DNA from: a bacterium
GTDB taxonomy: Bacteria > Patescibacteriota > Minisyncoccia > Phycocordibacterales > UBA9973
Direction of reading: 5' to 3'
NCBI GenBank assembly: GCA_021831595.1
Contig: JAKBMK010000025.1
Span: 1-61,113 of the forward strand
Length of the DNA: 61,113 nucleotides
The position numbers were made by a program, and so were the translations under genes. Under the pieces are notes generated by a model. The model did no database searches and had not been told where the DNA came from. It saw only the letters and a list, made by a program, of their open reading frames with translations. Shown one piece after another: positions 13,639 through 31,250 of the stretch (the first letter of the stretch is position 1; each line of letters opens with the position of its first letter).

Positions 13639-13690
13639 TAGAGGAAGTATAGTAAAGATTGTGAAAAGTTATTACTCTTCAAAAGTATTC

Positions 13691-13720
13691 AAAAAACCAC
13701 CCAGAAATGGGTGGTTTTTT
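13691..13720 (+). terminator. Terminator hairpin (CACCC...GGGTG family)
   Basis: AAAAAACCACCCA-GAAA-TGGGTGGTTTTTT. Related copies lie near 17053, 18109, 40184 and 51021. Confidence 0.75.
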
Positions 13721-13746
13721 GTTGTCTATTTTGGTAATATTGTACT

Positions 13747-15816
13747 ATGAATAAGTTTCTAAAATTATGCTTACTGGCACTTGCTATCACTCCACTCATA
13801 CCAGATAATACGATTTTTACCCCAGAGAATAGTATCTTTTTTATGAGGACTATTTTGGTAATAATTGGTGTTATATTTTTAATAGGGTTTGTTTCATTAA
13901 AAGATTTTCGAACATCAATATCAGAAAGAATAAAGATATTTACTAGAAATCCTCTTTTTGTGTCTTTGGGATTATTTGTCTTATTTTTTACAATAAGTAC
14001 TATATTTGCATCAGATAAATATATAGCACTTTGGAGTAATACTGATCGCTTCGAAGGGCTGGTGGGGATTATGTATCTATTTTGTTTTTCAATTTTTTCT
14101 TTACTTATTTTCAAAAAGGAGGATTATTTTGATTTTTTTAAGTTAAGCCTTTTTGTTTCTTTCATCGTTTTAATTAAAGAATTTTCAGAATCATTCAGCG
14201 GAGCAGTTCGTCCCGATTCGTTTATCGGTAATCCTACCTTCCTTGCCGGATATTTACTCTTTTCAATTTTCTGTTCAATATTGGTATTCAAGGAGACAAA
14301 GAATAATTTCTTCAAATATTTCTCTGTCTTGATTTCTACTCTATCTATTATAGGTATCTTCCTTACACAAACGCGAGGGACTCTTTTAGGACTTGTCGCC
14401 GGAGTTGTCGCTCTCTTGTTCTATGGGGCTATCAAAGGAAGGGGTGTGTCTTTGAATAAACGGAAAATAAATAAACTATCCGTTATTATTCTATGTATAA
14501 TTTTTGTATCCTCTAGTATTTTTATTGCTACTCGCAAGAATGAAGTTTGGCAAAAAGTTCCAGGTTTATCGCGTGTTGCCCAGATAAGTAGTGAAGATAA
14601 TACAACCAAGACCAGATTGATAATGGGTCAGATAAGTATGAAGGCAGTGAACCCAAAGGAAGAGGGGATGAAGAAGTTTCTAATAGGTTGGGGGCCAGAA
14701 AATTTTAGTCTGGCTTATGCAAAATATTTTAATCCAGTTCAATTTAAATATGAAGTTGGTTGGTTTGATAGGTCTCATAATAGACTACTCGATGTATTAG
14801 TTATGACTGGGCTTTTAGGACTTTTGGCCTATCTTTCTATATGGTTTTTATTTTTTAAATTTATTTTTAAGACGAAAGGATTCTCCATTTTAAATATTGG
14901 CCTGATATTTTTTGGAGTTTCTCTTTTTGTTCATTTACTGTTTGTTTTTGACCAGATTACCACATCGGTACCATTTTTCATTGTGCTAGCCTTCTCTATT
15001 TACTTAATAGAGTCAGATAAATTTAAAGAGATTGAAACAAAAAAGAAGATTCACAAGGAAGTCAAAGACAACCTAGTAATTGCAATGGATGTTATATTCT
15101 TAATACAGATTTTGTTTATTGGTTTTGCTTATTTTAAGAATGATTTACCTGCCTTTATCCAAATAAAAGAATATGGTATCTTAAGAAAAGATAGTGAAAT
15201 CAGTAATATTTTACAAAATATAAACACAGTATTTGATCCATTTACATCTGCCCAGATGAGGATTAGATATGATTTTATGGGTTTTATTTCTAAGAATTAT
15301 GATGAGAAAAATGAGAAGATTAAAAAGTTATCAGATATTTCATTAAATAGAGCTGTAGAATATACAAAAAAAGTTCCTTTAGATTTACAATTTTCCAATT
15401 ATTTAGGATTAACATATGTCAATCAAGGTATAGCTACAAACGATTTAGAGAATTATAAAAAAGCTGAAGAAATTTTTAATAGGAATCTTGTTTATGCTCC
15501 AAATAAGTTAGATTTTAATTATGGTTTAGCTGTTAGTTGGTTCTATCAGAAGCGTTATGATGAAGCTTTCAGTAAATTTGAACAAATTTTTGATTTATCT
15601 CCAAGCTATTTTCAACAGAAAGAAGGGAAGGGACCTGAGAAGATTTATACCATGTTTATAAAATACTTTTATGATAAAAGAGACAAGACCAATTTTGTAA
15701 AGACGGCTAAGCGTTTGAAAGACAATGGTTTTGCTAATAGTCAGATCCTAGATCAAATAATCTCAATTATTGACGAGACTGGTACTTGGCCGTATATTAA
15801 TTTCAAAAATGACTGA
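13747..15816 (+). CDS. O-antigen ligase / oligosaccharyltransferase-like membrane protein with C-terminal TPR
   Basis: Multiple TMs, GNPTFLAGYL, TQTRG, GWGPENF and FDRSHN, followed by a helical TPR tail. Confidence 0.88.
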   Translation: MNKFLKLCLLALAITPLIPDNTIFTPENSIFFMRTILVIIGVIFLIGFVSLKDFRTSISERIKIFTRNPLFVSLGLFVLFFTISTIFASDKYIALWSNTDRFEGLVGIMYLFCFSIFSLLIFKKEDYFDFFKLSLFVSFIVLIKEFSESFSGAVRPDSFIGNPTFLAGYLLFSIFCSILVFKETKNNFFKYFSVLISTLSIIGIFLTQTRGTLLGLVAGVVALLFYGAIKGRGVSLNKRKINKLSVIILCIIFVSSSIFIATRKNEVWQKVPGLSRVAQISSEDNTTKTRLIMGQISMKAVNPKEEGMKKFLIGWGPENFSLAYAKYFNPVQFKYEVGWFDRSHNRLLDVLVMTGLLGLLAYLSIWFLFFKFIFKTKGFSILNIGLIFFGVSLFVHLLFVFDQITTSVPFFIVLAFSIYLIESDKFKEIETKKKIHKEVKDNLVIAMDVIFLIQILFIGFAYFKNDLPAFIQIKEYGILRKDSEISNILQNINTVFDPFTSAQMRIRYDFMGFISKNYDEKNEKIKKLSDISLNRAVEYTKKVPLDLQFSNYLGLTYVNQGIATNDLENYKKAEEIFNRNLVYAPNKLDFNYGLAVSWFYQKRYDEAFSKFEQIFDLSPSYFQQKEGKGPEKIYTMFIKYFYDKRDKTNFVKTAKRLKDNGFANSQILDQIISIIDETGTWPYINFKND

Positions 15817-16348
15817 AAGACTTTTTAAATTAATAGAAAAAATAGTTCCAAATAAATGGCATTGGGTTCTTCAGCATGAAGGGCACAAGAGGTACTTTGC
15901 GAATATGAGCTGGATGTTCGGAGGGCAGATGTTCTCGCTTCTCGTTTCTTTCTTCATTGGTGCCTGGGTTGCTCGCTATCTGGGTCCAGAGAATTACGGA
16001 GTACTGAACTATTCTATTGCATTTGTAGGAATATTTGGATTTATCGCTACACTGGGGATAGATAGTATTCTGAACAGGGAACTTGTTAAGACTCCTGAAA
16101 GAAAGGAAGAATTGCTAGGGACATCCTTCCTTTTGAAATTAATAGGTGGAGCTATCGCGTTCTCTCTAGCAATACTAAGTGTATTGATATTTCAATCCGA
16201 GCCACGAATCAAAATACTCGTGTCGTTGTTCGCTTTTTCTTTTATTTTGCAGTCTGTCAATGTCATAAGTATCTACTTTAATGCCGAAGTAAAGTCAAAG
16301 AATAATGTGAGGGCAAGTATTATTGCGACAATTATTTCATCGATATGA
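15809..16348 (+). pseudogene. Wzx-type flippase, N-terminal fragment truncated at a REP
   Basis: ARYLGPENYGVLNYSIAF...LGIDSILNRELVK. It is only ~179 aa and stops 5 nt before the hairpin at 16353. Confidence 0.82.
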
Positions 16349-16352
16349 AATA

Positions 16353-16388
16353 CGCAAGAACCGTTCTTGCGAAATATTCTTGCGAAAT
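16353..16388. repeat. REP-like palindrome family A plus half copy
   Basis: CGCAAGAAC-C-GTTCTTGCG followed by TTCTTGCGAAAT. Confidence 0.88.
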
Positions 16389-17054
16389 ATGGGGGCCACG
16401 GCTTTGCTTATTATCTGTATTTTCATGTTGGTTTTCTTTGTCTATCTGCCTATGGGCAAGGCCGTCTCCTACAATAAACTTATAAGTATGGGTATTGATG
16501 AACGTCCTAGCTATTACAAAGAATTGCTAGGGGGTTCTTCTGTCGGCAGTACGATAGATGCTAGTAGTATGGCCTCTACTGTATATGCTTATTATGCTGC
16601 CAATTTACCCCAGATCAAGAGCGATGTCAGTATGCGACCATATGTAGAAGCCGACTTAAAGGCTCTGACAGAATATTTGGATGAATTGATTTTAAAAAAT
16701 AATACAGATTTCCGCTTATACATTACCGATGTATTTTTGTACAACACTCTTACTACCTTATCTGAAAGACCTTACGATAAAGCTCTGGCCAACTATTTAT
16801 TTTCATTATTAGAAAAGGCTCACCGCCTTTCCCCGGCCAATCCGGAAGTGTATTGGGCGAGGGCCAACATCTATGCTTGGCAAGGGGATTTGAAATCGGC
16901 AGAGAATGCATACAAAGAAGCCGTCGCCTCAGACAGGGAAGCCCCTGGCTCTTACCGCCTCCTTATAAATTTTGCCAAAGTGGTAAAAAACCAAAAATTG
17001 TACGAAGAAACTCTAAAAGAAGTCCAAAAGCATATACCAGATTTTCAGTATTAA
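16389..17054 (+). pseudogene. TM+TPR fragment, probable C-terminal part of a second ligase-like gene
   Basis: Begins right after the REP. It has one TM helix, then LEKAHRLSPANPEVYWARANIYAWQGDLKSAENAYKEAV. Confidence 0.6.
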
Positions 17055-17096
17055 ACACCCATTTATGGGTGTTTTTTGTTTTGTGTTAAATAGTCA

Positions 17097-17139
17097 AACT
17101 TTATAAAGTTACCTTAATTTTGACTAACTTTATAAAGTT
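17097..17139. promoter_or_regulatory. Two perfect palindromic operators AACTTTATAAAGTT
   Basis: At 17097-17110 and 17126-17139, over the TTGACT...GATAAT promoter of the HTH-Fic gene. Confidence 0.7.
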
Positions 17140-17157
17140 TGATAATATATTAGATAT

Positions 17158-18084
17158 ATGAATATAAGGCAAAAACTTGAGATAATTAAGAAAAAATTAG
17201 GATTAACTCAGACAGAATTGGCAGAAAGATTTGGGGTTTCTTTTGTTGCCTTTAATAATTGGTGGCTAGGGAAGTCAATTCCTCGTAAAAAAGCAGAAGC
17301 CCTTATTGAAGATTTATTTTTGGAAGTTACAGGACAAAAAACAATTTCTATTGATAGACTCATAATAAAGAAAGAGAGACTACAAAAGAAATCTCTTGAA
17401 CACAAAAGTATTATAAATGAGATTTTGAATAATAAAGATATCTATGATGAATTTGTTTTAAAGCTTACTTATCATAGTAACAGCATAGAGGGTAGTACTC
17501 TTACAGAAGCTGATACGAAAGCAGTTCTCTTTGATAATGTTGCTTTGCAAAATAAGACATTGATTGAACAGTTGGAAGCAAAAAATCATCAAACGGCCTT
17601 AAATTATCTTTTTGATCATATTTTTAAAAAAAGAGAAATTAATGAAGATTTAATATTAAAACTTCACAGTATTCTTATGAATGGAATTAGACCAGATGCA
17701 GGATTCTATAGGAATCACGGAGTTCGAATTGTAGGAGTTAGCCTACCTACTGCCAATTATATAAGAGTTCCAGAAATAATTAAATCTATTATGATAAGTG
17801 TAAAAGGCATAAATAAAGATATTGTAAGTCTTTCCGCAAATGTGCATAGCCGTTTCGAGCAGGTTCATCCTTTTTCAGATGGGAATGGAAGAATCGGACG
17901 ATTGTTGATGACAGCAATGCTTTTAAAAGCAAACATGGCTCCAGCTGTTATCCATCAACAGCAAAAGCAGCTTTATTATACTTATCTTTATAAATCTCAA
18001 ACAAAAGATGACCAAAGTCAACTTGAGGATTTCTTGTGCGACACAATATTGAGTGGGTTTGATATCTTAGAACGAAATTTCTAA
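17158..18084 (+). CDS. XRE-HTH plus Fic domain protein
   Basis: LTQTELAERFGVSF HTH, SNSIEGS and the Fic motif HPFSDGNGRIGR. Confidence 0.93.
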   Translation: MNIRQKLEIIKKKLGLTQTELAERFGVSFVAFNNWWLGKSIPRKKAEALIEDLFLEVTGQKTISIDRLIIKKERLQKKSLEHKSIINEILNNKDIYDEFVLKLTYHSNSIEGSTLTEADTKAVLFDNVALQNKTLIEQLEAKNHQTALNYLFDHIFKKREINEDLILKLHSILMNGIRPDAGFYRNHGVRIVGVSLPTANYIRVPEIIKSIMISVKGINKDIVSLSANVHSRFEQVHPFSDGNGRIGRLLMTAMLLKANMAPAVIHQQQKQLYYTYLYKSQTKDDQSQLEDFLCDTILSGFDILERNF

Positions 18085-18156
18085 ACAGAATATAAACTCT
18101 CGAACCACAAAAAACACCCGTATGGGTGTTTTTTGTTTTGCCGAATTATCGAATTT

Positions 18157-18288
18157 CCCCCTCTCCAGTAATCTGGAGAGGGGTAGGGGTGAGGTGTATC
18201 GATCCCTCCTCCTCTCTCTCCTTCGATGCGCAAGGACCGTCCTTGCGCATTGCAGGGGGGGGCGGAAGCCTTCGGCTTCCGCCCCCTA
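18157..18288. repeat. Cluster of three different palindromes, including REP family C
   Basis: CCCCTCTCCAG-TAAT-CTGGAGAGGGG, ATGCGCAAGGAC-C-GTCCTTGCGCAT (18226-18250) and GGGGGCGGAAGCC-TTC-GGCTTCCGCCCCC. Confidence 0.8.
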
Positions 18289-18355
18289 TTTTGGTATTTT
18301 ATATGTATTTATGTTATCATTTAGCATATAATATGCGCTTTATTGCATACATTAA

Positions 18356-19135
18356 ATGATTAAAAGACATGAAAATTACAGAGAGTTAGTCTTGCGTCTT
18401 GCCAAGACAGACTTCAAGCTTCGCTACCACGGCAGTGCGCTCGGCTACTTGTGGGCTATCTTGAAGCCACTTCTCATGTTTACCGTTTTGAATTTTGTCT
18501 TCTCTTCACTTTTCAATTTTAGGAATTCTGGGACGCCGTACTACCCCCTAGAGCTCATAACTGCCATACTCCTCTTCCAATTCTTCTCCGAAGGGACGAC
18601 CAGCGGGATGAACTCTCTCGTCTCCAAAGCCCAGCTCGTCACGAAGATATACGTCCCTCGGTGGACTATCGTCTTGGGCTCTACGGTCAATGCACTTTTT
18701 GTTTTCTGTATGAATCTGATAGTGCTCGCTGTCTTCTTGGTCGCGTATAGCAAGCTCCCTAGCCTCCTTGGAGTAGTCATGTTCTTGGTGTATTCTATGC
18801 TCCTATACGTCCTCATCGTCTCATTCTCTTTGATCACGGCACCTCTATTCGTCCGCTTCCGAGACCTCAGTATGATCTGGGAGATCCTCCTATCTGTCTT
18901 GATGTATGCTGCTCCGATCGTCTACCCACTCTCAATGATTCCAGAGAAGTTTCGGCATTTAGTCTTGATAAATCCGCTTTCTTTCATTATCCATTTCGCC
19001 AAGCAAGCCCTCATCTCCAATGATTTTACGAAGTTTAGTCATTTTGCAATTCTCTTTTTGGGAGTGGCCAGTATCGCCACCGTCTCATTCTTAATATTTA
19101 AAAAGTCCGAAAGGAGTGTCGCAGAGCTTATATAG
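18356..19135 (+). CDS. wzm: Polysaccharide ABC transporter permease (Wzm)
   Basis: DFKLRYHGSALGYLWAILKPL, RFRDL, PIVYP and INPL. Confidence 0.92.
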   Translation: MIKRHENYRELVLRLAKTDFKLRYHGSALGYLWAILKPLLMFTVLNFVFSSLFNFRNSGTPYYPLELITAILLFQFFSEGTTSGMNSLVSKAQLVTKIYVPRWTIVLGSTVNALFVFCMNLIVLAVFLVAYSKLPSLLGVVMFLVYSMLLYVLIVSFSLITAPLFVRFRDLSMIWEILLSVLMYAAPIVYPLSMIPEKFRHLVLINPLSFIIHFAKQALISNDFTKFSHFAILFLGVASIATVSFLIFKKSERSVAELI

Positions 19136-19138
19136 TAT

Positions 19139-20449
19139 ATGACAAGCAAAGAGAACAACAAGGAAATACTAAACGCGATTGAAGTCAAGAATATTTCAAA
19201 GAAGTTTACCATTCCGCACGACAAGGTTAGCACTCTGAAAGGAGCTTTTGTGAACCTTTTCAAAAAGAATAATTCCGAGATATTCTACGCCCTAAGCGAC
19301 GTCTCTTTTGAAATTAAAAAAGGAGAATTCTTTGGTATCATCGGGCGTAACGGCAGTGGCAAGTCCACACTGCTGAAGATCTTAGCCGGTATCTACAGGC
19401 CCAACAAGGGGGTAGTGAAGATAAACGGCCGGATCTCGCCATTCCTTGAGCTCGGCATCGGCTTTAATCCGGAACTTTCCGGACGCGACAACGTGTATCT
19501 AAACGCCACTGTCCTCGGACTGACCAAGAAGGAGATTGATAGGAAGTTTGACTCTATCGTTGCCTTCTCAGAGCTTGAGAGATTCATAGACCAAAAGCTC
19601 AAGAATTATTCTTCCGGTATGAACGTCCGCCTTGCCTTCTCTGTCGCCATCCATGCCAATCGTGATATACTCCTTATGGACGAAGTTCTCGCCGTCGGCG
19701 ATGCGAACTTCCAATCCAAATGTCTAGCCGAATTTGCTCACTACAAAGAAATGGGTAAGACCGTCGTACTCGTGACTCACGACATCAGCACAGTCCAGCG
19801 CTACTGCGACCGAGCAATGCTCGTACGCAATGGCCGGATAGAAATGATCGGCAACCCAGAAGAAGTCGGCAATGAGTACATTTACCAAAATATGTCCGAC
19901 GAAGAGAAGAGGATATATAGTGAGGAGAAAAGAAAAATAAACCAAGCCGAAGAAGATTTAGCCAGTCTTAAAGGGCAAGCACTTGAAAATGAATTAAAAA
20001 GAATTGAAGATGAAAAAATAAAATTAGAAGAAGAGAAAAAGAACAAAATAGCGGAAATTACCGAAGTAAAATTCTTAGATAAGGATGGCAAAGAAAAGAA
20101 TGTCTTTGAAACAGGGGAGGATATCACAATTAGAGTTTATTTTAAAAAACGTAAAAATATTGACAAATTAAACTTTGGTATTGCTCTTTTTAATCAAGAA
20201 AATAATTGTATATTTGGTACTAATACATTTATAAATAAAATAAATACCTCCCAAATGTTAAAAAATGGTTTTTTTAACATAAACTATAAAGGAGTATCAC
20301 TGAGAACAAATTCATACTACATTCAAGCTGGAATATGGGGTGATATAGTTACTGTCAATTATGACTTTTTATCAAAATCTAAAATATTTAAAGTGTTTAC
20401 GAAAGATCAGAACATAGGTATAATAAACATTAATCATAGCTGGAATTAA
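19139..20449 (+). CDS. wzt: Polysaccharide ABC transporter ATPase (Wzt) with C-terminal carbohydrate-binding-type domain
   Basis: GRNGSGKST, YSSGM, DEVLAVGD and a Wzt_C-like tail. Confidence 0.93.
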   Translation: MTSKENNKEILNAIEVKNISKKFTIPHDKVSTLKGAFVNLFKKNNSEIFYALSDVSFEIKKGEFFGIIGRNGSGKSTLLKILAGIYRPNKGVVKINGRISPFLELGIGFNPELSGRDNVYLNATVLGLTKKEIDRKFDSIVAFSELERFIDQKLKNYSSGMNVRLAFSVAIHANRDILLMDEVLAVGDANFQSKCLAEFAHYKEMGKTVVLVTHDISTVQRYCDRAMLVRNGRIEMIGNPEEVGNEYIYQNMSDEEKRIYSEEKRKINQAEEDLASLKGQALENELKRIEDEKIKLEEEKKNKIAEITEVKFLDKDGKEKNVFETGEDITIRVYFKKRKNIDKLNFGIALFNQENNCIFGTNTFINKINTSQMLKNGFFNINYKGVSLRTNSYYIQAGIWGDIVTVNYDFLSKSKIFKVFTKDQNIGIININHSWN

Positions 20450-20454
20450 TAAAA

Positions 20455-21114
20455 ATGAACGATTTAAAAAAATATTTTGAAAATAACTACAAAAGCCTAA
20501 TTCATAAATGGAATCATTATTTTGAAATATATGATAATCATTTTTCACGTTTTAGAGGTAAAAATATAACTATTCTTGAAATTGGAGTTTCGCATGGTGG
20601 GTCTTTGCAAATGTGGAAAGATTATTTTGGAGAAAAAGCCACTATTATAGGGGTTGATATTAATCCCGATTGCAAAAAACTTGAAGAGGATGGAATTAAA
20701 ATATACATTGGGTCTCAAGAGGATCGAGCATTTTTAAGAGATCTTAAATATAAAATACCAAAAGTTGATATTTTAATTGATGATGGTGGCCATACTATGA
20801 AACAACAAATCACAACTTTTGAAGAACTATATGATCATGTAAAAGATGATGGAGTTTATCTTTGTGAAGATTTACATACTTCTTATTGGGAAGAATATGG
20901 AGGAGGGTACAAAAAAGATGATTCTTTTATTGAATATAGTAAGAATTTTATTGATTATATAAACTCATGGCATTCACATTCTAAAAATGAATTAGATGTA
21001 AATTTTTTTACAGAATCAGCCAATTCTTTACATTATTATGACAGTATTTTAGTTATTGAAAAAAGAAAAAGAACCGAACCTTATCATGAAATGACAGGAA
21101 ATCCAACAATATAA
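20455..21114 (+). CDS. Class I SAM-dependent methyltransferase (glycan modification)
   Basis: ILEIGVSHGGSLQMW, IIGVDI, LIDDGGH and GVYLCED. Confidence 0.88.
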   Translation: MNDLKKYFENNYKSLIHKWNHYFEIYDNHFSRFRGKNITILEIGVSHGGSLQMWKDYFGEKATIIGVDINPDCKKLEEDGIKIYIGSQEDRAFLRDLKYKIPKVDILIDDGGHTMKQQITTFEELYDHVKDDGVYLCEDLHTSYWEEYGGGYKKDDSFIEYSKNFIDYINSWHSHSKNELDVNFFTESANSLHYYDSILVIEKRKRTEPYHEMTGNPTI

Positions 21115-21118
21115 AAAT

Positions 21119-24100: not shown

Positions 24101-24862
24101 GCCCAAAACATTGAATCATTTTTTATTCCTTATTTTGACAATAATAAAATTAAATTAGAAGATACATTAAAAAATACCAGAGCCACCATTTGTGTTCCAA
24201 GTGAATATTCTTTGAATGTTGTTAAAAAATATAATAAAAATGTCCAATTATTTAGGTATGGTTTTAATGATTTGTATGATAAAGAAATTGATATAAAAAA
24301 AGATATACAGTTTAGTATCATAGGAACGATTGAAGACAGAAAAGCTCAAGATATTTTTGTTGAAGCAATATTATTAATGCCAGAAAAATATCAAAAGAAA
24401 GCAAAATTTAATATTATAGGTAATGATAAAACTTGTCTATCTTTTTCTCAGAAATTAAAAGAAAAAACTAAAAAAATACCATCAGTTGTTTGGCACGGAT
24501 TAATTTTAGATCAGAATAAAAAAAAGAATTTATTCATAAAAACCTCAATTTTAGTTGTGATTTCTCGTGATGATTGTGCTCCGTTGGTGGTTACTGAGGG
24601 AGCAGTATTAATGAAGCCATCAATTATTAGTACAAACGTTGGAACTTGTTTTCCTTTTGATAATGGAAAAACTGGTTTTATTGTTGAAACTGGTAATATT
24701 AAACAGTTAGCAGAAACGATGATGAATATTATTGATAATCCATCTATATTAAATTCTATGGGTGAAGAAGCAAGAAAAAGATATTTAGAAACATCAACTA
24801 TTGATTTATTTAGAAATAAGATCTTATCTTTAATAAAAGAAAAAACGAATTTAAAAATTTAG
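21119..24862 (+). CDS. Multidomain methyltransferase - coiled coil - GT2 - GT2 - GT4 protein
   Basis: VELGTHYG...HIDGLHTYEAVKHD, ISIIVPVYNT...LLDHDD, ISIIIP...FYNDD and VIHELTITGAP...GTIEDRKAQ. Confidence 0.9.
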   Translation: MNWEYYNPKFEYEEIFEDLSWPWAGHKYFAYDLISNIKPKIIVELGTHYGTSLWSFSQAVKDQKLNTEINAIDTWKGDKHAGFYGEEIYETVKDIKNKFYSGVKINLIRKTFDEALSDFNDDSIDILHIDGLHTYEAVKHDFENWLPKVKNNGIIIFHDTVVSREDFGVYKLWKELKKTYQSIEFFHSYGLGVLFKDENNSIFGLKEELELHYAYLLEDIENGKIVKLFNDLNEKNKIIEKKNQEIESKESIIQKKDLEINSKIFEIEFMKSSRFWKIKTFYEKFKNPILKAIKLIKKAIVILKKDGLIIFTKKVINFILNYKTNRNIFLMPCLNVNNISNEIFNKQQNEFSKEEIKLQIKNFSKKPLISIIVPVYNTPPIWLRKAIDSLCNQYYENWEICAVDDFSTNDKTRLILKEYGKLDPRVKFIFLGENGGISNASNIALEMAKGEYVALLDHDDELTKDALFWVVKEINDNPTADFLYSDECKIDDTEERKLFDFFFKPDWSPEFLFNFMYTGHFTIYKKKLVNEVGNFRSEYDFSQDYDLALRCSEKAKNIVHIERVLYLWRAVDGSAANGGKDYARKTNIAALQDFAHRKGLLARATILPNANYLNIINNINKKISIIIPSDSIDNIIRSIENIIKKTNYPLFEVIVVCNSNIKNNLEQKYKQKNIIFKPYDKQFNFSDKCNQGAQKALGDILVFYNDDVVPINDDWLVKLIEYIDINGIGGISPKLLYEDGTVQYAGMTTNSLPFCGTFLHQKNESETMVNLLRNVSILSGACLAIKKSIFFEVGGFDSINTPAGHSDLDLSFKIRDAGYRCVYTPYSVLSHIGNHSWHIKKDKADIYVLSRWGKYISNDPYYTKSMRATYEGYLPEQFGIFSKQSEFFKKKFNVLIVIHELTITGAPIIAFDIAKAVLELGGYPVMYSYSDGPLRFELEKLNIPVIVNNIAKQDEFSFINFAKNFDVIIANTVVTYPAVHMIQDIVPTIWYIHEAQNIESFFIPYFDNNKIKLEDTLKNTRATICVPSEYSLNVVKKYNKNVQLFRYGFNDLYDKEIDIKKDIQFSIIGTIEDRKAQDIFVEAILLMPEKYQKKAKFNIIGNDKTCLSFSQKLKEKTKKIPSVVWHGLILDQNKKKNLFIKTSILVVISRDDCAPLVVTEGAVLMKPSIISTNVGTCFPFDNGKTGFIVETGNIKQLAETMMNIIDNPSILNSMGEEARKRYLETSTIDLFRNKILSLIKEKTNLKI

Positions 24863-24876
24863 ATAAAACAAAAACA

Positions 24877-24958
24877 TAGCAAGAATCGTTTTTGCTACAA
24901 CTTACTACAATTTTTGACATTTTGGGGGAGAAATGACTCGCAAGAACCGTTCTTGCGA
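24877..24958. repeat. REP family A copies upstream of RAYT-1
   Basis: Degenerate TAGCAAGAATCGTTTTTGCTA (24877-24897) and perfect TCGCAAGAACCGTTCTTGCGA (24938-24958). Confidence 0.85.
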
Positions 24959-24987
24959 AAGGAAAACGAGATTGATATAATTAAATT

Positions 24988-25674
24988 ATGTTGAGAAAAG
25001 ATCCATTTATTACTGGTGAGTACTATCATATATATAACAGAGGAATAGACAAAAGAAATATATTTAAACTAGAAAGAGATTATGAGAGATTCATGATGCT
25101 TTTGTATGTTTCTAATTCTACTAATGAAAATTCTTTACGATTAGATGATCTTTTAAATAAACAGCATAAAAGTTTTAAAGAAGTTTTGATTTTAGATAAA
25201 GGTAAGCCACTAGTTTCTATAGGTGCTTGGTGTCTTATGACCAACCATTTTCATTTATTAGTTAGGCAAGAGGTAGACGGAGGGATAACTAAATTTATGA
25301 GAAAAGTGGGGGTAGGGTATTCAATGTTTTTTAATATTAAATATCATAGGCAGGGAGCCTTGTTTGGGGGGCTCTTCAAATCTAAATTAATTGGTAAGAA
25401 TGATAATTATTTAAAAATGCTTTTGGCATATATTCATTTAAATTCACTTGAGATAAATTTCCCAGATTTAGAAAATAAAAAAGGGGAGTATAAAGAGGAT
25501 GAAATGAAAGAATTTTTGGATTCATATCGGTATTCTAGTTATAGGGATTATATGGGAATTAATAGAACAGAGAAGAGTATTTTAAACAGAGAATCTTTCC
25601 CGGAATATTTTCATACAGATCAATCCTTCATTGAATTTGTGGAGAATTTTTATCTTTATAAACAACAGCACTAA
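24988..25674 (+). CDS. REP-associated tyrosine transposase (RAYT-like Y1/HUH) #1
   Basis: YHIYNRG, WCLMTNHFHLL (HUH), YIHLN (catalytic Tyr) and YSSY. REPs flank it on both sides. Confidence 0.9.
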   Translation: MLRKDPFITGEYYHIYNRGIDKRNIFKLERDYERFMMLLYVSNSTNENSLRLDDLLNKQHKSFKEVLILDKGKPLVSIGAWCLMTNHFHLLVRQEVDGGITKFMRKVGVGYSMFFNIKYHRQGALFGGLFKSKLIGKNDNYLKMLLAYIHLNSLEINFPDLENKKGEYKEDEMKEFLDSYRYSSYRDYMGINRTEKSILNRESFPEYFHTDQSFIEFVENFYLYKQQH

Positions 25675-25890
25675 TCTTTCTAACCTTTCGCAAGAACCGT
25701 TCTTGCGACAAAAATCTTTCTAACCTTTCGCAAGAACCGTTCTTGCGACAAAGTTCTTGCGACAAATAAAAAGAAAAGGGCTCCTTAGGTAGTTAACCGT
25801 TCGGATCTCTCTTCGTATTGATATGGGTATTATATATCTTTGTGGTGCTACGGACTCGCAAGAACCGTTCTTGCGACAATCTTGCGACAA
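25673..25890. repeat. REP family A cluster downstream of RAYT-1
   Basis: A 40-bp tandem duplication (25673-25712 and 25713-25752) in which each unit contains TCGCAAGAACCGTTCTTGCGA, another copy at 25856-25876, and half copies. Confidence 0.9.
25768..25836 (-). ncRNA. Candidate small RNA, orphan copy of the NYN-linked motif
   Basis: Minus strand: TATAAT-N-ATATCAATACGAAGAGAGATCC...GGAGCCCTTTTCTTTTT, homologous to 29322-29391. Confidence 0.5.
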
Positions 25891-25940
25891 CAAAGGCAAG
25901 ACCTTTGCACGGACAGCAAATTGCAAAGGTCTTGCCTTTG
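25891..25940. repeat. REP doublet family B (left inverted copy)
   Basis: CAAAGG-CAAGA-CCTTTG ... CAAAGG-TCTTG-CCTTTG, the exact reverse complement of 27001-27050. Confidence 0.92.
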
Positions 25941-25946
25941 CGTCTA

Positions 25947-26906
25947 TTAAGTTTTTATTAGATAAGTTCTTCCTTTGAATATACGATACAGGAATATCAA
26001 GAAGTTGATGATGGATACTCCCACTACGTCCAAGAAAGATAAAGCCCAGCCGATGTAAGCAGGGAGGAAGAGCTTCTTGGTCTTGATAGACTTTTTGAAG
26101 TTTGATCTACTTGTTTTTGTATCTCCTCCTAAGAAATACATGATCCCAAGGCGGAAGTATCCTACGTGGACATAGTTGTATTTTGAATAAAGATCATAAT
26201 GCTTTTGGAAGACGTATTCGGCGTCTTTCACTTTTATCAGCTTGTCCTTTGATGCCTTTGTGATGTTATTCTCATGAAAATAATAGTTGAACAATGGCTC
26301 GTTTATAAAAGTTATATTGTAGCCAAGGCTCATGACCCGTATCCACATATCCCAATCCTCCGAATATTTCATTCGTTCGTCTCTCTTGCCAACAGCGTAG
26401 GCGACTTCGCTTTTCATTAGTACACTGCTGTTGCTGTATATTGGGTTCCTTAGCAGAATTTCTGGGATCGCGACTTTTTCATTGATAGGATTATAAATGC
26501 TAAAGCAGTTGCCTTTGTCATTTATCAAGTTAGCTCCGCAGGAGACAATGCAAAGCTTCTCGTCTTTGGATTCTTCAAAAGCTTTTAATTGTTTTGCCAG
26601 CTTCTCGGGTAGCCACTCGTCGTCGTGGTCTAAGAATGCGATGTACTGGCCCACGGCGCGCTCTACTCCTACATTTTTAGGAGTGGCGGGGCCACCGGAG
26701 TTTTGAGATGTTTGCAAGAGTTTGATCCGTGGATCTTGCCTGATGAATTCGCCGATCAATTCTGTCGTATTGTCAGTAGAGTGGTCGTCCACTATCAAGT
26801 ATTCCCAGTCTGTAAATGTTTGAGCGCGGACGCTCTCAACTGTCCTCTTTATGAAAAGGGAGCTGTTGTAAGTCGGTGTGATGATGGATACTTTAGGGTT
26901 GTTCAT
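25947..26906 (-). CDS. GT2 family glycosyltransferase
   Basis: VSIITPTYN, VDDHSTD, FLDHDDEW and SEDWDMW. Confidence 0.93.
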   Translation of the reverse strand: MNNPKVSIITPTYNSSLFIKRTVESVRAQTFTDWEYLIVDDHSTDNTTELIGEFIRQDPRIKLLQTSQNSGGPATPKNVGVERAVGQYIAFLDHDDEWLPEKLAKQLKAFEESKDEKLCIVSCGANLINDKGNCFSIYNPINEKVAIPEILLRNPIYSNSSVLMKSEVAYAVGKRDERMKYSEDWDMWIRVMSLGYNITFINEPLFNYYFHENNITKASKDKLIKVKDAEYVFQKHYDLYSKYNYVHVGYFRLGIMYFLGGDTKTSRSNFKKSIKTKKLFLPAYIGWALSFLDVVGVSIINFLIFLYRIFKGRTYLIKT

Positions 26907-27000
26907 TCTAGTGCGTTGTTGTTCTACTCATTCTTAATATTCTTTGGCAAACATATCAGCATTCTAGCATAAATAAAGGGCATACGGCAGGGTAAAGCCA

Positions 27001-27050
27001 CAAAGGCAAGACCTTTGCAATTTGCTGTCCGTGCAAAGGTCTTGCCTTTG
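27001..27050. repeat. REP doublet family B (right inverted copy)
   Basis: Exact 50-bp reverse complement of 25891-25940. Confidence 0.92.
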
Positions 27051-27082
27051 TGGGTTATTCTATTTGTATCAAAAGCTTGCCT

Positions 27083-27129
27083 TAATCGTATCATAATGAT
27101 ACGATTAGAGCATATAAATGATACGATTA
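27083..27129. promoter_or_regulatory. Palindromic operator upstream of the wHTH-Fic gene
   Basis: TAATCGTATCAT-A-ATGATACGATTA (27083-27107) plus a third half-site at 27118-27129. Confidence 0.65.
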
Positions 27130-27143
27130 AATATATGAGGGAT

Positions 27144-28187
27144 ATGAGTAAAAGACAAATTAATATATTAGAAAAGTTTCCAGAAGAAGGGAAGATTTCA
27201 TCTTCCGATATTTTAAAAATTTTAGGAGAGAAAGTGTCCTTAATTACGATCAAAAGAGATTTAGAGAGTTTGGTTGTACTAAAGTATTTAGAGAGAAAAG
27301 GAAAGGGTAGATCTACTGTATATGAAAAGACTACCTTAGGAATGTTGCTATCCCCAGTAGATGCTTCCAAGTATAACGCAGTAGACCCCGATGTTCGGAA
27401 TGGAAGAGATAGTTTTAATTTTTCTCTGTTTGAAAATTTTCCTAAAGATGTCTTCATGAGTGATGAAAAAGAATCTCTAGATAATGCGACAAAAAAATAT
27501 CAAAAAAATATTAAAAATATAAGTCAGACAGTACAGTTTAAAGAATTAGAGAGGTTTGTCATAGAACTGTCTTGGAAGTCTTCAAAAATTGAAGGGAACA
27601 CATACACCTTGCTAGATACAGAGAAGCTTATCCGTGAAGGCATTCCCGGAGAAGGACGTACCAAAGATGAAACGACGATGATACTTAATCATAAAAAAGC
27701 TTTTTCTTTTATTATGGATAATCTGGGTGACTTGCATAAAAATGGTGTCAACCTAAAATTCATAGAAAAAGTTCACGAATTACTGACTTCTGGACTAGGG
27801 GTTTCAAGGGGTATCAGGAATGGTTTAGTGGGTGTTATCGGTACTAAATACAAACCACTTGATAATAAGTATCAGATAAATGAAGCGCTAGAGACTCTTT
27901 ATAAGAGAGTGAATCAAATGCAGAATGTGTACAGTAAGGCTTTAACTCTACTTGTTGGAATTTCATATATCCAACCCTTTGAAGATGGGAACAAAAGGAC
28001 TGCTCGTTTGCTTTGCAATGCTATCCTTTTGTCTTTAAAGTGTGCTCCATTGTCGTATCGCAGTGTAGATGAGAATAATTATAGGGAATCCATTCTTGTT
28101 TTTTATGAGAAAAATTCTTTGGTGCCAATGAAAAAAATATTTATAGATCAATATATTTTTTCAACGGAGAACTACTTAGTTAAGTAG
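27144..28187 (+). CDS. wHTH plus Fic domain protein
   Basis: TIKRDLESL...KGKGRSTVY, SWKSSKIEGN and the Fic-like motif QPFEDGNKRTAR. The start is at 27135 or 27144. Confidence 0.88.
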   Translation: MSKRQINILEKFPEEGKISSSDILKILGEKVSLITIKRDLESLVVLKYLERKGKGRSTVYEKTTLGMLLSPVDASKYNAVDPDVRNGRDSFNFSLFENFPKDVFMSDEKESLDNATKKYQKNIKNISQTVQFKELERFVIELSWKSSKIEGNTYTLLDTEKLIREGIPGEGRTKDETTMILNHKKAFSFIMDNLGDLHKNGVNLKFIEKVHELLTSGLGVSRGIRNGLVGVIGTKYKPLDNKYQINEALETLYKRVNQMQNVYSKALTLLVGISYIQPFEDGNKRTARLLCNAILLSLKCAPLSYRSVDENNYRESILVFYEKNSLVPMKKIFIDQYIFSTENYLVK

Positions 28188-28254
28188 GAAATATAATTTG
28201 GCTAATAATACAACAGGCGGAGGCGTAAGCCTCCGCCTGTTGTATATGTATTTT

Positions 28255-28461
28255 CTAATGCGTAAAGATTATTATTATCGTCCTTAGTATTATCCCAAAG
28301 TCGATGAAGATATTTCTATTTTTTATATAATACAAATCATACTCAAATTTTTCTTTTGAGCTCTCGATCGTGTTTGCATAGCGGTACTTGATCTGGGCCC
28401 AGCCGGTGAATCCTGGGCGGATGATATGGCGGAGGTTGTAGTGGGGGATGGTCTCGGACAT
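28255..28461 (-). pseudogene. Duplicated 3' end of the sugar transferase gene
   Basis: The last 64 aa match those of 29421-30716 at all but one residue. Confidence 0.9.
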
Positions 28462-28519
28462 ATGGGTATTCTAGCATAAATAAGGGGGATACGGCAGGGC
28501 AGAGCAGGGTAGCACTCTG

Positions 28520-28712
28520 CAAAGGTCTTGCCTTTGTCGATGCGCAAGGACGGTCCTTGCGATTAATGAAGCAGGGCAAAGCTTTGCTTTGCCCTGCCGG
28601 TCTCTGTATTAACTAATGTGGCATTTTTGTTAATACTATGTTTCTAGTGTAAACCAAAACGCCATGTTGGTTTACACTTTGTCGATGCGCAAGGACCGTC
28701 CTTGCGCATCGA
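28520..28712. repeat. Cluster of REP families B and C plus other palindromes
   Basis: B at 28520-28536, C at 28543-28561 and 28682-28712, and other hairpins at 28571-28597 and 28646-28678. Confidence 0.88.
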
Positions 28713-28814
28713 TATGAGCGTATATATCAGCCTTGTTGGTAAAATTATACAATGGTTTTATGTTTTGTAAATTTTTTGTTTGTCTTTTTGTTTTTTATTT
28801 GAGATAATATAAAT

Positions 28815-29309
28815 ATGGATATGGATGTGAAAAAAGTAAATATTTATATAGATGGGAACAATCTTTATCGTTCAGCAAAAGAGCTCGGTTATGAAATAGA
28901 TTATAAAAAGTTTAGAGTGTGGTTATCTCAAAAATATAATACAAAAAATATATTTCTTTTTATTGGATATTTAGAAAATAGGAAAGATTTTTATAATCAT
29001 TTGAAAAATTGTGGTTTTAATTTGATATTTAAGGAAGCTATTCTTCATGAAGGAAATATTAAAGGTAATTGTGACGCTGAATTAGTATTAAAATCAGTTG
29101 ATGATTATCATTTGAAAAACTTTGATAAATTTATATTGATTTCAAATGATGGTGATTTTGGATGTTTAATAGAATTTTTAATAAATAAAAATTGTTTTGA
29201 TATTATACTATCACCTGATATAAGTAAATGTTCTATATTGTTAAGAAATAAAACAAATAAGATTTTATATTTAAACGAAATTTATAAGAAATTTTCTAAA
29301 AGCAAGTAA
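28815..29309 (+). CDS. NYN domain (LabA/DUF88, PIN-like) nuclease
   Basis: YIDGNNL, KGNCDAELV and LISNDGDF acidic motifs. Confidence 0.9.
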   Translation: MDMDVKKVNIYIDGNNLYRSAKELGYEIDYKKFRVWLSQKYNTKNIFLFIGYLENRKDFYNHLKNCGFNLIFKEAILHEGNIKGNCDAELVLKSVDDYHLKNFDKFILISNDGDFGCLIEFLINKNCFDIILSPDISKCSILLRNKTNKILYLNEIYKKFSKSK

Positions 29310-29321
29310 ATTACTTATCCC

Positions 29322-29391
29322 AAAAGAAAAAGCTCCCGGCATGGGCGCACCCATACAAGGATCTCTTTCATAATGATATAGGTATTATATA
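29322..29391 (-). ncRNA. Candidate small RNA convergent on the NYN gene
   Basis: Minus strand: TATAAT, then GAAAGAGATCC..ATGGG-TGCG-CCCAT..GGAGCTTTTTCTTTT. Confidence 0.55.
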
Positions 29392-29420
29392 CCAACGTGA
29401 CACCAGTGTCAAGACTATTT

Positions 29421-30716
29421 CTAATGCGTAAAGATTATTATTATCGTTCGTAATATTATTCCGAAATCGATGAAGATATTTCTGTTCTTTATATAATATA
29501 AATCGTATTCAAACTTTTCTTTTGAATCTTCGATTGTATTTGCATAGCGGTATTTTATTTGAGCCCAGCCGGTGAATCCTGGGCGGATGATGTGGCGGAG
29601 ATTGTAGTGGGGGATCTTGCCTTCGAGAGGAGTGACGAATTCTGGGCGCTCTGGACGGGGACCGACGAGCGAAAGATCGCCACGGAGTATATTTATCATT
29701 TGCGGAATTTCGTCGATGTGGAGCTTGCGGATGACTCTGCCGACCCGAGTGACACGAGGGTCGGATGCTCCTGTGGCCCAGACGGCGCCATCCTTCTCGG
29801 CGTTTATCGTCATAGAGCGAAGCTTGTAAAGCCTGAATATATTGCCATTGAGTCCAACTCTATTTTGAGTATAGAAGATTGGACCTTTGTCGTTTAGATA
29901 TATGAACACTCCACTGACAAGCAATATAGGTGAGCAGAGTACTAGTATGATGATAGCGAACAACTTATTCACAATAAACGTCATTATATTGTAGGCGACG
30001 TCTTTCTTTATATTTATATTCTCTACAACGAAAGACATATCGATATACCCAACAGGAATTTTGAATAGATATTTCTCATAAGCTTTGGCTGTGTCGATGA
30101 TGGAGCATCCTTGCTTGTATAGTTCCAAAATCTTTTCGTCTGGAGAGTCTATTTTCTTGTCTAGGATTATCACCAAATTTTTTGTAATTTTCTCTACTGA
30201 CTTCATCTCATTCATACTGTCTAGATGACTTACGATCGAGAGCCCGATCTGAGGATTTGCTTTTATCGTATTCTCTAATTCTTTCAGATAAGTAGAAGTC
30301 CCGACGAGAATTACCGGCTGTGTTATGCCCTTGGCGAAAAGGGTATAGATAGTTCTACGAAAGAAGAAAGAAAAGAAACCGAACAGAACGACCTGGATCA
30401 AGAGGTTCATCTTTGGATAAATACCGAATATAGGGGCTAGGTAGAATAGGATCAAGCCGACGACGAAGGAGGAGGCCAGGGCTAGGGCCCATCTCTTCAT
30501 ATAGGGGATAGTAGGCTTTATCGTCACCAAGTCATATAGTCCAAATATATAGAAAATAAGCACCCAGATGAGATATAGGAGGAGGAATGGCACAGTATGA
30601 CTGTCGATAGCAGAAAGGTACTGGTCGGGAGAGAATCTTATGAAAATAAGCAATATAAAAGAGATGAGAAAAGATAGAAAATCTCCGAATATGATAAGCC
30701 AAGTTCTATTCGTCAT
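29421..30716 (-). CDS. Polyprenyl-phosphate sugar-1-phosphate transferase (WcaJ/WbaP-like)
   Basis: FRLYKLRSM, DPRVTRVGRVIRKLHIDEIPQ, SLVGPRPE and PGFTGWAQ. Confidence 0.95.
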   Translation of the reverse strand: MTNRTWLIIFGDFLSFLISFILLIFIRFSPDQYLSAIDSHTVPFLLLYLIWVLIFYIFGLYDLVTIKPTIPYMKRWALALASSFVVGLILFYLAPIFGIYPKMNLLIQVVLFGFFSFFFRRTIYTLFAKGITQPVILVGTSTYLKELENTIKANPQIGLSIVSHLDSMNEMKSVEKITKNLVIILDKKIDSPDEKILELYKQGCSIIDTAKAYEKYLFKIPVGYIDMSFVVENINIKKDVAYNIMTFIVNKLFAIIILVLCSPILLVSGVFIYLNDKGPIFYTQNRVGLNGNIFRLYKLRSMTINAEKDGAVWATGASDPRVTRVGRVIRKLHIDEIPQMINILRGDLSLVGPRPERPEFVTPLEGKIPHYNLRHIIRPGFTGWAQIKYRYANTIEDSKEKFEYDLYYIKNRNIFIDFGIILRTIIIIFTH

Positions 30717-30822
30717 ATGAAGACATTCTAGCACAAAAGGCGGGAATATAGCACCGTTTTGACATTTTGGGATAGAAGGAATATTCTCTATATGAAATCA
30801 AACATTCAAATAAACTCAAGAT

Positions 30823-31170: not shown

Positions 31171-31231
31171 CAAACATACCCCAGAGGCTAAACCTTTGGG
31201 GTAAATTTGTATGATTTATACCCCGCACTTT

Positions 31232-31250
31232 CCACAGGAATTGCCTGTGG
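31232..31250. repeat. REP-like hairpin family E
   Basis: CCACAGG-AATTG-CCTGTGG. Confidence 0.7.

Follow-up and report, generated by a model that had tools for sequence, protein, structure and literature searches.

REP hairpins and a RAYT gene in a variable glycan locus of a patescibacterial genome: probable passengers rather than shuffling machinery

Introduction

In Pseudomonas and Escherichia coli, repetitive extragenic palindromic (REP) sequences occur in hundreds of copies per genome. In E. coli and Salmonella, Shyamala et al. reportedly found REPs and bacterial interspersed mosaic elements (BIMEs) in 1990 where rearranged DNA is joined. Clusters of O-antigen and capsule genes lie between conserved flanks, as in rfb of E. 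coli (galF–gnd) and cps of pneumococcus (dexB–aliA). The function of REP-associated tyrosine transposases (RAYTs) and of REP doublets that form hairpins (REPINs) is a long-standing question. A genome typically contains one RAYT according to bioRxiv 10.1101/119735, where RAYTs and REPINs are proposed to have been domesticated for an unknown host benefit, and a GTAG-type 5′ tag of REPs is described in PMC3733652. Here, we describe a glycan locus in which a RAYT gene and REP-like hairpins lie among glycosyltransferase genes. It spans 13.7–30.8 kb of a stretch of 61,113 nucleotides (nt), hereafter the window, that makes up the initial 61 kb of a contig of 178 kb from a bacterium of the Patescibacteriota (GenBank assembly GCA_021831595.1).

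The genome (labelled G000) comprises 807 kb in 33 contigs with 95% completeness. Its relatives are labelled with G-numbers (genomes of the genus, n = 61), loci with L-numbers and sequencing runs X1–X7. Among the papers listed on RAYTs and REPINs none mentions Patescibacteria, and terms for the candidate phyla radiation (CPR) are absent from PMC6006769. Among those listed on glycosyltransferases of Patescibacteria or episymbionts we found nothing on a hypervariable locus of this kind.

An initial annotation had proposed that the REPs act as recombination points of an integron-like system that swaps glycan genes and other cargo. The locus is indeed variable and enriched in REPs, and REPs are absent from most of its independent breakpoints. 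The reading that we regard as probable, though not certain, is that a variable glycan island which imports DNA and tolerates insertions has collected a RAYT gene and the REPs of three systems, and that the REPs are passengers and not the shuffling machinery.

Results

A mosaic glycan locus between conserved flanks

Open reading frame (ORF) calls and Pfam matches give the gene order as W1, an N-terminal flippase fragment, a C-terminal fragment W2, Fic-1, wzm, wzt, a methyltransferase (MT) gene, a gene for a 1247-residue MT-GT2-GT2-GT4 protein, a Y1_Tnp gene (RAYT-A), a GT2 gene on the reverse strand, Fic-2, the end of a Bac_transf gene (its last 66 codons), an NYN gene and a full Bac_transf gene on the reverse strand (Table 1). 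The guanine-plus-cytosine (GC) content along 13.7–30.8 kb swings from 0.17 to 0.53. The glycan-locus parts found with Pfam are Bac_transf, glycosyltransferase (GT) domains of types GT2 and GT4, wzm/wzt with Wzt_C, and Wzy_C, and the glycan product would be surface-exposed. The initial annotation had named the genes correctly, namely the truncated flippase, the headless tetratricopeptide-repeat (TPR) fragment, the wzm–wzt–GT block, the RAYT, GT2, Fic and NYN genes and the duplicated gene end. The Fic and NYN genes are present as non-glycan cargo, as it had said.

The same flanks enclose 9–24 kb of differing glycan genes in G008, G019, G020, G021, G023, G004, G016, G015 and G050. On the left they consist of the 10055 homolog, a PG_binding gene and a Wzy_C+TPR gene, and on the right of Bac_transf and the genes at 32.6–34.6 kb. 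Most relatives have a Wzx/Wzy export type; wzm/wzt is found in G020, G016, G015, G041 and the window. The order of the modules differs as well: in G016 the GT2 gene abuts wzm (68–77% amino-acid identity) and Fic-2 directly faces Bac_transf, and orthologs of Fic-1 (79–81% identical) follow the terminator of the left anchor in G024 and neighbour Bac_transf in G006. In G050, a full-length W gene (64% identical to the window fragment) is directly followed by a full flippase gene (74%). The loci of relatives also contain non-glycan genes, namely RAYT, Fic and GIY-YIG genes and HicA accompanied by an AAA_14 protein. The locus is rearranged in every relative examined, and it is also where variant contigs from the same samples diverge. 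At the DNA level, the 3′ 300 nt of Bac_transf are conserved best among relatives. Given the conserved flanks and the variable glycan content, the locus is a mosaic and a variable glycan island of the classical kind, and the initial annotation was right to speak of cassette shuffling.

A scan of metagenome contigs with Bac_transf returned nothing closer than 73% amino-acid identity, and no strain-level locus for comparison. Apparent 3′ fragments of Bac_transf in G050:C9 and G052:C11 were rejected, since they are genes cut by contig ends. The region between the RAYT and Bac_transf of G041, which holds PhoH-PIN, UVR-domain and Smr genes, was rejected as a comparable cargo island.

Breakpoints and REPs

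Eight steps in GC content are seen in the locus, with REPs at 18.2, 25.7, 27.0 and 28.7 kb and none at 15.75, 17.05, 19.95 and 29.4 kb. The sharpest of the joins is found within wzt, near 19.9–20.05 kb between the ATPase and Wzt_C domains, and carries no REP. The ATPase domain of this chimera has a GC content of 0.43–0.49 and is 77% identical to G016, and the Wzt_C domain has a GC content of 0.27. The join is supported by the GC step, by the end of the G016 homology at 19879 and by loose contig ends at 20028 and 20043 (X1, X5 and X6).

Seven runs from two studies contain the searched stretch (21.5–31 kb). Among the 24 loose contig ends listed (of 90 in four runs), 20 are located inside genes at least 440 nt from any REP; the remaining four (18158, 18199, 25578 and 25611) lie 30–110 nt from a REP. 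No REP-to-REP joint is present among the contig joints listed. The positions of synteny breakpoints and of REPs, which the initial annotation had expected to coincide, are mostly unrelated, as the REP-free wzt join and these loose ends indicate.

The low-GC block of about 20.0–25.7 kb ends at the RAYT gene and its REP cluster, which would fit co-import of RAYT-A with the giant transferase gene. Two contig joints were set aside as too weak: 28449 to 30001 in X7, with only 26 nt on one side, and 21824 to 24288 in X5 (depth 624), which falls in an AT-rich internal repeat. The X7 contigs (95–99% identity) cover 12.8–20.3, 26.6–28.2 and 29.8–32 kb, but not 20312–24868 or 28775–29425 and next to none of 24869–25519. 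Such gaps might reflect a strain without the MT/giant-GT/RAYT block and NYN, but coverage gaps prove nothing and they were not used as evidence.

Three hairpin families

REP-like hairpins are found at all six sites named in the initial annotation and belong to three families, A, B and C. The window contains eight matches to A/B and seven to C, where 0.01 are expected for each (100 shuffles each, none of which reached those counts). All of these hairpins fold as single-stranded DNA (ssDNA) with z of −3.5 to −10. The C doublets (25890–25945, 26996–27051 and 42781–42818) form REPIN-like stems of 19–22 bp with −25 to −32 kcal/mol. The first of them ends 1 nt from the GT2 stop codon and the second is inverted relative to it. 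REP-A units have an extra TCTTGCGA half-site 4–5 nt beyond the stem. No GTAG-type 5′ tag was seen at the hairpins here.

The whole genome holds 37 hairpin copies (A/B 15, C 10, D 3, E 7 and F 2; up to 2–3 mismatches), 13 of which lie within 16.3–28.7 kb, a stretch of 12.4 kb or 1.5% of the genome. REPs occur in 15 of 415 gaps of at least 40 nt, and four of these 15 are among the ten gaps of the locus (hypergeometric P = 2e-4). This test was based on crude ORF calls, and five further REP sites of the locus remained uncounted because spurious ORFs ran over them. Gaps inside operons of the locus are only 3–5 nt long. As a REPIN population, family C amounts to ten single hairpins (up to 2 mismatches), which form three doublets, not tens to hundreds. 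Copies dispersed away from their own gene are seen for families A/B, C and E and not for D and F.

The statement of the initial annotation that hairpins stand at module boundaries thus holds in that many borders are marked by the three families and the RAYT. It is partly trivial, in that REPs can survive only between genes. On the reading that we favour, they would mark the borders because no other non-coding DNA is available, and not because REPs create borders.

The spacer 18141–18300 before wzm contains two more GC-rich hairpins beside REP-B, one ending at 18186 and one at 18257–18287 that was scored as a terminator (14 pairs). The former is seen in other sequence contexts in X7 contigs (loose ends 18158 and 18199).

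Five RAYT-like genes

RAYT-A scores 23.6 bits with the NCBIfam model REP_Tyr_transpos (NF047646), far under the cut-off of 80, and a search of its sequence against PDB chains gave no match. Its AlphaFold model (predicted local distance difference test score 82) has 4er8_A, from the complex of the E. coli RAYT with its REP, as the top Foldseek match (E 0.011, probability 1.00, TM-target 0.59), after which IS608 and ISDra2 TnpA rank with E 0.2–0.3; no match reaches E 0.001. The NHFH motif and Tyr148/Asn152 are invariant in 11 homologs, and the YHxYNRG block and the Y...N motif are common to all. By their anatomy these are RAYT/REP systems, and by curated sequence thresholds they form a branch that appears distant and undescribed. 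Proteins of this type may already be included in the RAYT groups listed by Bertels et al. and Quentin et al.

The genome encodes five RAYT-like paralogs, none of which is duplicated, and to either side of each lie hairpins of a family of its own. The paralogs are 40–68% identical to RAYT-A (35–68% in the alignment; best paralog 68%). The other four adjoin housekeeping genes (S6/SSB, TatD, S1/Pth/GyrA and EamA). For D and F, the loop sequence clearly shows the flanks to be inverted. Around RAYT-A, inversion is seen in the sequence beyond the stem (I3 and I5), but the single central loop base is identical on both sides. Family C is without a RAYT of its own, and C-like variants flank RAYTs in G050 and G054; as judged from the shared loop (Table 1), RAYT-D is likely to be its trans-acting partner. 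Family B belongs with the RAYT-B paralog on another contig. RAYT-A, RAYT-B and RAYT-D would then serve families A, B and C.

A copy of the family E hairpin at C31:40507–40531 (L033) lies inside the reading frame called for RAYT-E, and the tblastn match of RAYT-E stops at residue 164. This gene may be interrupted.

REPs and RAYTs in other genomes

The genomes of the genus contain 0–7 RAYT-like genes each, with at least one in 53 of the 61 and about 140 matches altogether. In the 11 syntenic or partly syntenic loci of relatives that were screened (G004 in two stretches) no dispersed REPs were found. Repeated hairpins in L018, L023, L024, L027 and L029 are only local RAYT flanks or are terminator-like, and there are none in G008, G019, G023 and the G015:C9 part (the four stretches L016, L017, L021 and L026). 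Of three further loci, that of G050 has all of its copies within ∼0.6 kb of its RAYT. The A/B hairpin is found in 14 of the 61 genomes, mostly as one pair ∼730–960 nt apart (around a RAYT), and is most frequent in G000.

The exact A/B 19-mer is present in at least 118 public genome stretches, mostly from Patescibacteria. When 80 of these loci (L114–L193) were fetched and searched by tblastn with the glycan proteins of the window (E 1e-6), a glycan-gene homolog was located within 3 kb in two, in both cases a wzt-like ABC ATPase; a RAYT lies within 200 nt in six. Most of the stretches come from metagenome-assembled genomes that carry the label Nomurabacteria, Taylorbacteria, Paceibacterota, Minisyncoccia, Zambryskibacteria or Saccharibacteria. 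Such a spread is unusually wide for a REP, yet it is patchy within the genus.

A block 5′ of Bac_transf is conserved in three species, in L027 (G015:C12), L235 (G066:C12) and L236 (G041:C7). Its parts are a large surface protein of Ig-like type, a protein of 215–220 residues, REPs, an E-type RAYT and again REPs.

Support for the assembly

The REP at 18229 is bridged by a contig of X5 (16353–23077), 27001–27050 by one of X7 (26556–28185) and 28519–28712 by contigs of X6 (27001–30131) and X1 (27022–32000). The REP at 16353 is bridged only in X1, a possible source of the window, and contigs end there in X5, X6 and X7. Logan contigs of four runs break at 24933–24962, 25683–25742, 25911–25919 and 27022–27030, with overlaps of 9–30 nt. 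The contigs listed include none that spans REPIN-C at 25.9 kb, or the REPs to the left or to the right of the RAYT. Spanning support, on which the initial annotation had made its junctions depend, is thus available at 18229, 27.0 kb and 28.5–28.7 kb and not around the RAYT, and the order of RAYT and GT2 rests on the original assembly because contigs break there.

Position 16352, one base before the REP-A stem, is A in the window and T in all four runs, including a possible source run. One X7 contig is without 13 nt at 16364, inside the REP-A hairpin.

Further features of the locus

The coordinates of all features are collected in Table 1. Terminator T1 has counterparts at the same place in G008, G024, G004 and G015 (85–95% matches). 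Its relatives T2 (17053–17083) and T3 (18110–18140) bracket Fic-1, and the three terminator hairpins are 71–84% alike. The pattern is as if Fic-1 and a terminator had moved together, T1 being kept after PG_binding in relatives. W1 is 42–47% identical to its orthologs in G019 and G020 and only 25% to the G050 protein.

The flippase fragment is 58% identical to residues 2–165 of a 429-residue G023 protein, with homology ending at 16312, and 74% identical to residues 1–168 of a 427-residue G050 protein. Homology to such full-length relatives stops near residue 165–181. When the G023 and G019 flippases served as queries, no missing flippase piece was found elsewhere in the genome. The W2 fragment contains one transmembrane helix and TPRs and is 37% identical to residues 458–688 in G023 and 64% to residues 456–672 in G050; its missing part, too, was not found in the genome. 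A tblastn alignment that reads REP-A (16353–16389) as protein was taken as chance, because this stretch is identical to other REP-A copies.

A scan of Fic-2 for the catalytic His motif H.[FY] found none, and the protein is probably not active as an AMPylase. Just 5′ of Fic-2, at 27061–27129, is a palindrome of ATGATACGATTA-type half-sites that is 94% conserved before Fic-2 of G016 and 87% beside Fic-1 of G006. It may serve the Fic genes as an operator.

The Bac_transf fragment corresponds to Pfam profile positions 117–178 of 179 and is 81% identical to the C-terminus of the G020 protein. At the nucleotide level, 198 nt of the Bac_transf 3′ end are duplicated with 88% identity (28252–28449 and 29418–29615). 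The CTTTAC ... TGCTAGAAT promoter is conserved upstream of Bac_transf in an alignment of relatives.

Table 1. Features of the glycan locus and related elements (window positions unless a contig is given)
Feature	Position	Strand	Remarks
Terminator hairpin T1	13690–13721	.	After PG_binding gene; left anchor; repeat family D6 and terminator scan
W1, full-length Wzy_C + TPR protein, 689 residues	13747–15816	+	Pfam Wzy_C 4.5e-13
Wzx-type flippase, N-terminal fragment, ∼181 codons	15770–16348	+	Pfam Polysacc_synt, profile 3–149 of 274
REP-A unit	16349–16389	.	Hairpin 16353–16371 and half-site TTCTTGCGA 16377–16385; between flippase and W2 fragments
W2 fragment, ∼215 codons	16390–17054	+	C-terminal third of a ∼685-residue Wzy_C+TPR protein; TPR Pfam; ORF 16323–17054
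Fic-1, HTH-Fic protein	17158–18084	+	HPFSDGNGRIGR motif intact; SNSIEG inhibitory-type motif
REP-B palindrome	18223–18250	.	Between Fic-1/T3 and wzm; GC step 0.30 to 0.45
wzm and wzt	18356–20449	+	Pfam; wzt chimeric
Methyltransferase and 1247-residue MT-GT2-GT2-GT4 protein	20455–24862	+	GC 0.17–0.33
Degenerate REP-A (24874–24897) and REP-A (24935–24958)	24874–24958	.	Upstream of RAYT
RAYT-A, Y1 HUH enzyme, 228 residues	24988–25674	+	Pfam Y1_Tnp 26.6 bits, cut-off 23
Three REP-A units (25685–25708, 25725–25748, 25853–25876) and 56-nt REPIN-C (25890–25945)	25685–25945		
GT2 glycosyltransferase	25947–26906	−	GC 0.38–0.48; 68% identical to G016 ortholog
Bac_transf-type promoter copy (CTTTAC ... 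TGCTAGAAT, 26951–26998), then REPIN-C (26996–27051)	26951–27051	−	
Fic-2, 350 residues	27135–28187	+	Pfam Fic 7.1e-12; start set from G016 ortholog (71% identical)
Bac_transf fragment and promoter copy	28255–28505	−	Last 66 codons (28255–28461) fused to second promoter copy (28458–28505)
REP-C (28519–28536) abutting REP-B (28537–28562), other hairpins, REP-B (28685–28712)	28519–28712		
NYN-domain protein	28815–29309	+	Pfam NYN 1.7e-15; GC 0.20–0.23
Full Bac_transf (initiating sugar transferase)	29421–30734	−	Right anchor of locus
REPIN-C doublet	42781–42818	.	Between FtsW/RodA and FolD, housekeeping context
RAYT-D paralog	59266–59931	+	Inverted hairpins 58295, 59219, 59924; loop GGCAAGACC is that of family C
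REP-A family (CGCAAGAACCGTTCTTGCG)	16353, 24939, 25689, 25729, 25857	.	Degenerate extra copy 24874–24897
REP-B family (CGCAAGGACSGTCCTTGCG)	18229, 28543, 28688		Extends to a 27–29 nt palindrome
REP-C family (CAAAGGCAAGACCTTTGC)	25891/25923, 27001/27033, 28519; 42781/42801		Last pair beyond the range of the initial annotation
RAYT paralogs of G000	24988–25674, 59266–59931; C20:3706–4371, C24:20348–21013, C31:40321–41037		

Discussion

In the reading that we favour, the content of the locus would turn over by import of foreign DNA and recombination, as in O-antigen and capsule loci. Crossovers would take place in conserved anchors and gene segments, such as the wzt ATPase domain and the Bac_transf 3′ end, with occasional illegitimate joins in addition. 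The gene fragments, the GC steps and the Fic and NYN genes, which have no glycan function, would be traces of such events. The three REP/REPIN families would have gathered in the few long spacers and dead gene remnants, either through insertion into tolerant DNA or through arrival with imported blocks. We infer that REPs insert or hitch-hike rather than recombine. Three families in one locus, with a different RAYT for each, are more in line with a sink than with a single local system.

A number of observations weigh against the REPs being passengers only. Four of the eight GC steps carry REPs. At 16.35 kb the REP-A unit fills the join, with the flippase stop at 16348 and W2 from about 16390, and we estimate a chance of ∼6% that a random insertion in the ∼1.3 kb of dead DNA would fall within 40 nt of it. 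Since G050 has W followed by the flippase, the opposite order, this join resembles the join-point of a duplication, the junction of a circle or an illegitimate join that followed import. GT2 and its promoter are bracketed by two 56-nt REPIN-C that are inverted and 96% complementary, and the unit of a Bac_transf-type promoter and REP-C is found twice, before GT2 and before the Bac_transf fragment. In the G066 and G041 loci some hairpin copies are 4–5 kb from their RAYT. The species-level relatives, at 65–80% nucleotide identity, are too distant to place breakpoints inside spacers. RAYTs also recur at the edges of the locus. Among the 23 genomes with a Bac_transf ortholog of at least 50% identity, which contain 59 RAYT matches, a RAYT lies less than 1 kb from Bac_transf in five (G011 58 nt, G004 371, G066 680, G015 935 and G020 950), where a rough estimate gives ∼0.3 expected; it lies within 10 kb in three more (G000, G041 and G050). 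In G021 and G050 a RAYT directly follows the PG_binding gene. The cases of G015, G066 and G041 count as one event because one conserved block is common to them. Several of the arrivals are independent, because at least four subtypes are involved on either side of Bac_transf. This recurrence is more than a neutral sink obviously predicts.

Alternatively, REPs, with or without cleavage by a RAYT, might cause some of the rearrangements, either as ectopic recombination sites or as break-and-join points in ssDNA. We hold this to be unlikely, if by no means far-fetched. REPs would have made the 16.35-kb join, carried the REPIN-bracketed GT2 away from wzm and started the insertion next to the Bac_transf fragment, all as occasional events in a locus that varies mainly by ordinary recombination. 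REP-A does lie exactly between the flippase and W2 fragments, whose order is opposite in G050, and the inverted REPIN-C enclose a GT2 gene that abuts wzm in G016. The Bac_transf fragment and the full gene are parted by the stretch 28450–29420, at whose end REP-C and REP-B are found, two variant-contig ends fall 30–70 nt from REP-B, and the recurrence of RAYTs at the locus edges agrees with such a role. In E. coli, BIME clusters have been associated with recombination, as stated in PMC3184786. Nevertheless, most independent breakpoints are without a REP, relatives are equally variable with few or no dispersed REPs, and the joints listed include no REP-to-REP contig. The flanks of REP copies show no sign of reciprocal exchange, and partners for ectopic exchange are few because the copy numbers (2–15 per family) are tiny. 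It is quite improbable, in our judgement, that RAYT/REP elements in this genus are truly and repeatedly drawn to the borders of the surface-glycan locus, with ssDNA cleavage at REPs occasionally producing joins (at 16.35 kb, at the REPIN-bracketed GT2) that aid the swap of cassettes, as a host-beneficial role of 'domesticated' RAYTs in varying the surface of ultra-small bacteria. Two further explanations have very little room. That some REP-bounded junctions, above all those around RAYT and GT2 (24.9–27.05 kb), are assembly joins via repeats, the true order or orientation being different or varying in the population, is suggested by the contig breaks at REP-A and REPIN-C around the RAYT in all four runs (overlaps of 9–30 nt) and by the T in place of A at 16352. 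It is made very improbable by the X1 pieces, which tile the window order without gaps, by the bridging contigs at 18229, 27001–27050 and 28519–28712, by the position of the window within a 178-kb contig and by G008, where RAYT-A is intact with its REP-A flanks. The dedicated integron-like system of the initial annotation, with REPs as attC equivalents and the RAYT as a recombinase for the capture and reordering of glycan and toxin/defence cassettes, we give the least credit of all. It draws on the many hairpin-bounded gene units, the RAYT inside the array and the repeated unit of promoter and REP-C, but is not borne out: integrase, attC-like uniform sites and promoterless one-way cassettes are all absent. 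None of the 19 ORFs at 11.8–31.9 kb contains a tyrosine-recombinase or integrase domain, the three hairpin families are tied to three RAYT genes of which two lie outside the locus, and the genes, which occupy both strands, have promoters and terminators of their own. Several units have no REP on one or both sides, hairpins in relatives are mostly beside a RAYT and the same hairpin elsewhere is unlinked to glycan genes. We know of no report of a RAYT moving passenger genes, though no search aimed at this was made. The loci of relatives, the GC steps, the loose ends and the occurrence of the hairpin elsewhere already largely refute such a system.

A genome of 0.8 Mb with little room for spare DNA thus keeps five RAYT/REP systems and has one third of its REP copies in its most variable locus. 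Were the link causal, RAYTs would gain a role in diversifying the surfaces of CPR bacteria. In the other case, which we judge more likely, the locus is a clear, testable case of a glycan island that serves as a sink for small mobile DNA, and a warning that 'repeats at gene borders' should not be taken as a mechanism.

Comparison with described systems

The closest counterparts of the elements themselves are the RAYT/REP(IN) systems of Enterobacteria and Pseudomonas, such as TnpA-REP of E. coli (PDB entry 4ER8) and the REPINs of P. fluorescens. Common to both are the HUH/Tyr Y1 enzyme, the flanking of the gene by cognate hairpins, dispersed extra copies, doublets of inverted REPs that form long hairpins and the single copy of each paralog; 4er8 ranks first among the structural matches, at E 0.011. 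In contrast, the proteins described here have ∼220–230 residues and a conserved N-terminal YHxYNRG block and score 23.6 bits against the NCBIfam cut-off of 80, with five paralogs in 0.8 Mb, 2–15 copies per REP family and a patchy distribution in the genus. IS200/IS605 elements and their passenger-carrying derivatives share the Y1 HUH enzyme and sub-terminal hairpins, and the two REP-A beside RAYT-A share the central loop base on the coding strand, as left and right ends of an insertion sequence would. Unlike these elements, there are no repeated identical copies here, the sequence outside the hairpins is inverted and not direct (I3 and I5), and the D and F flanks are inverted.

Integrons resemble the locus in their short gene units parted by imperfect palindromes that fold in ssDNA. 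They differ in that IntI, attI and a single Pc are absent here, the genes have their own promoters and lie in both orientations, the three hairpin families are unrelated and no uniform cassette structure is found in relatives. The join-points of E. coli and Salmonella are similar in that a REP is located exactly at a novel join of unrelated gene pieces (16349–16389). Classically, however, two existing REPs recombine, whereas here the ends lie inside genes, where a REP would not be expected, and a single such join is seen.

As a whole, the locus compares with the O-antigen and capsule clusters. It departs from them in its CPR-type host, in a load of RAYT/REP elements instead of classical insertion sequences and in the interspersed Fic, NYN, GIY-YIG and HicA genes. 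It shares with them the conserved flanks, the atypical, stepped GC content, the swap of a whole pathway between Wzx/Wzy and wzm/wzt, the exchange of the Wzt C-terminal domain along with the downstream transferases, and the presence of gene remnants and mobile-element genes.

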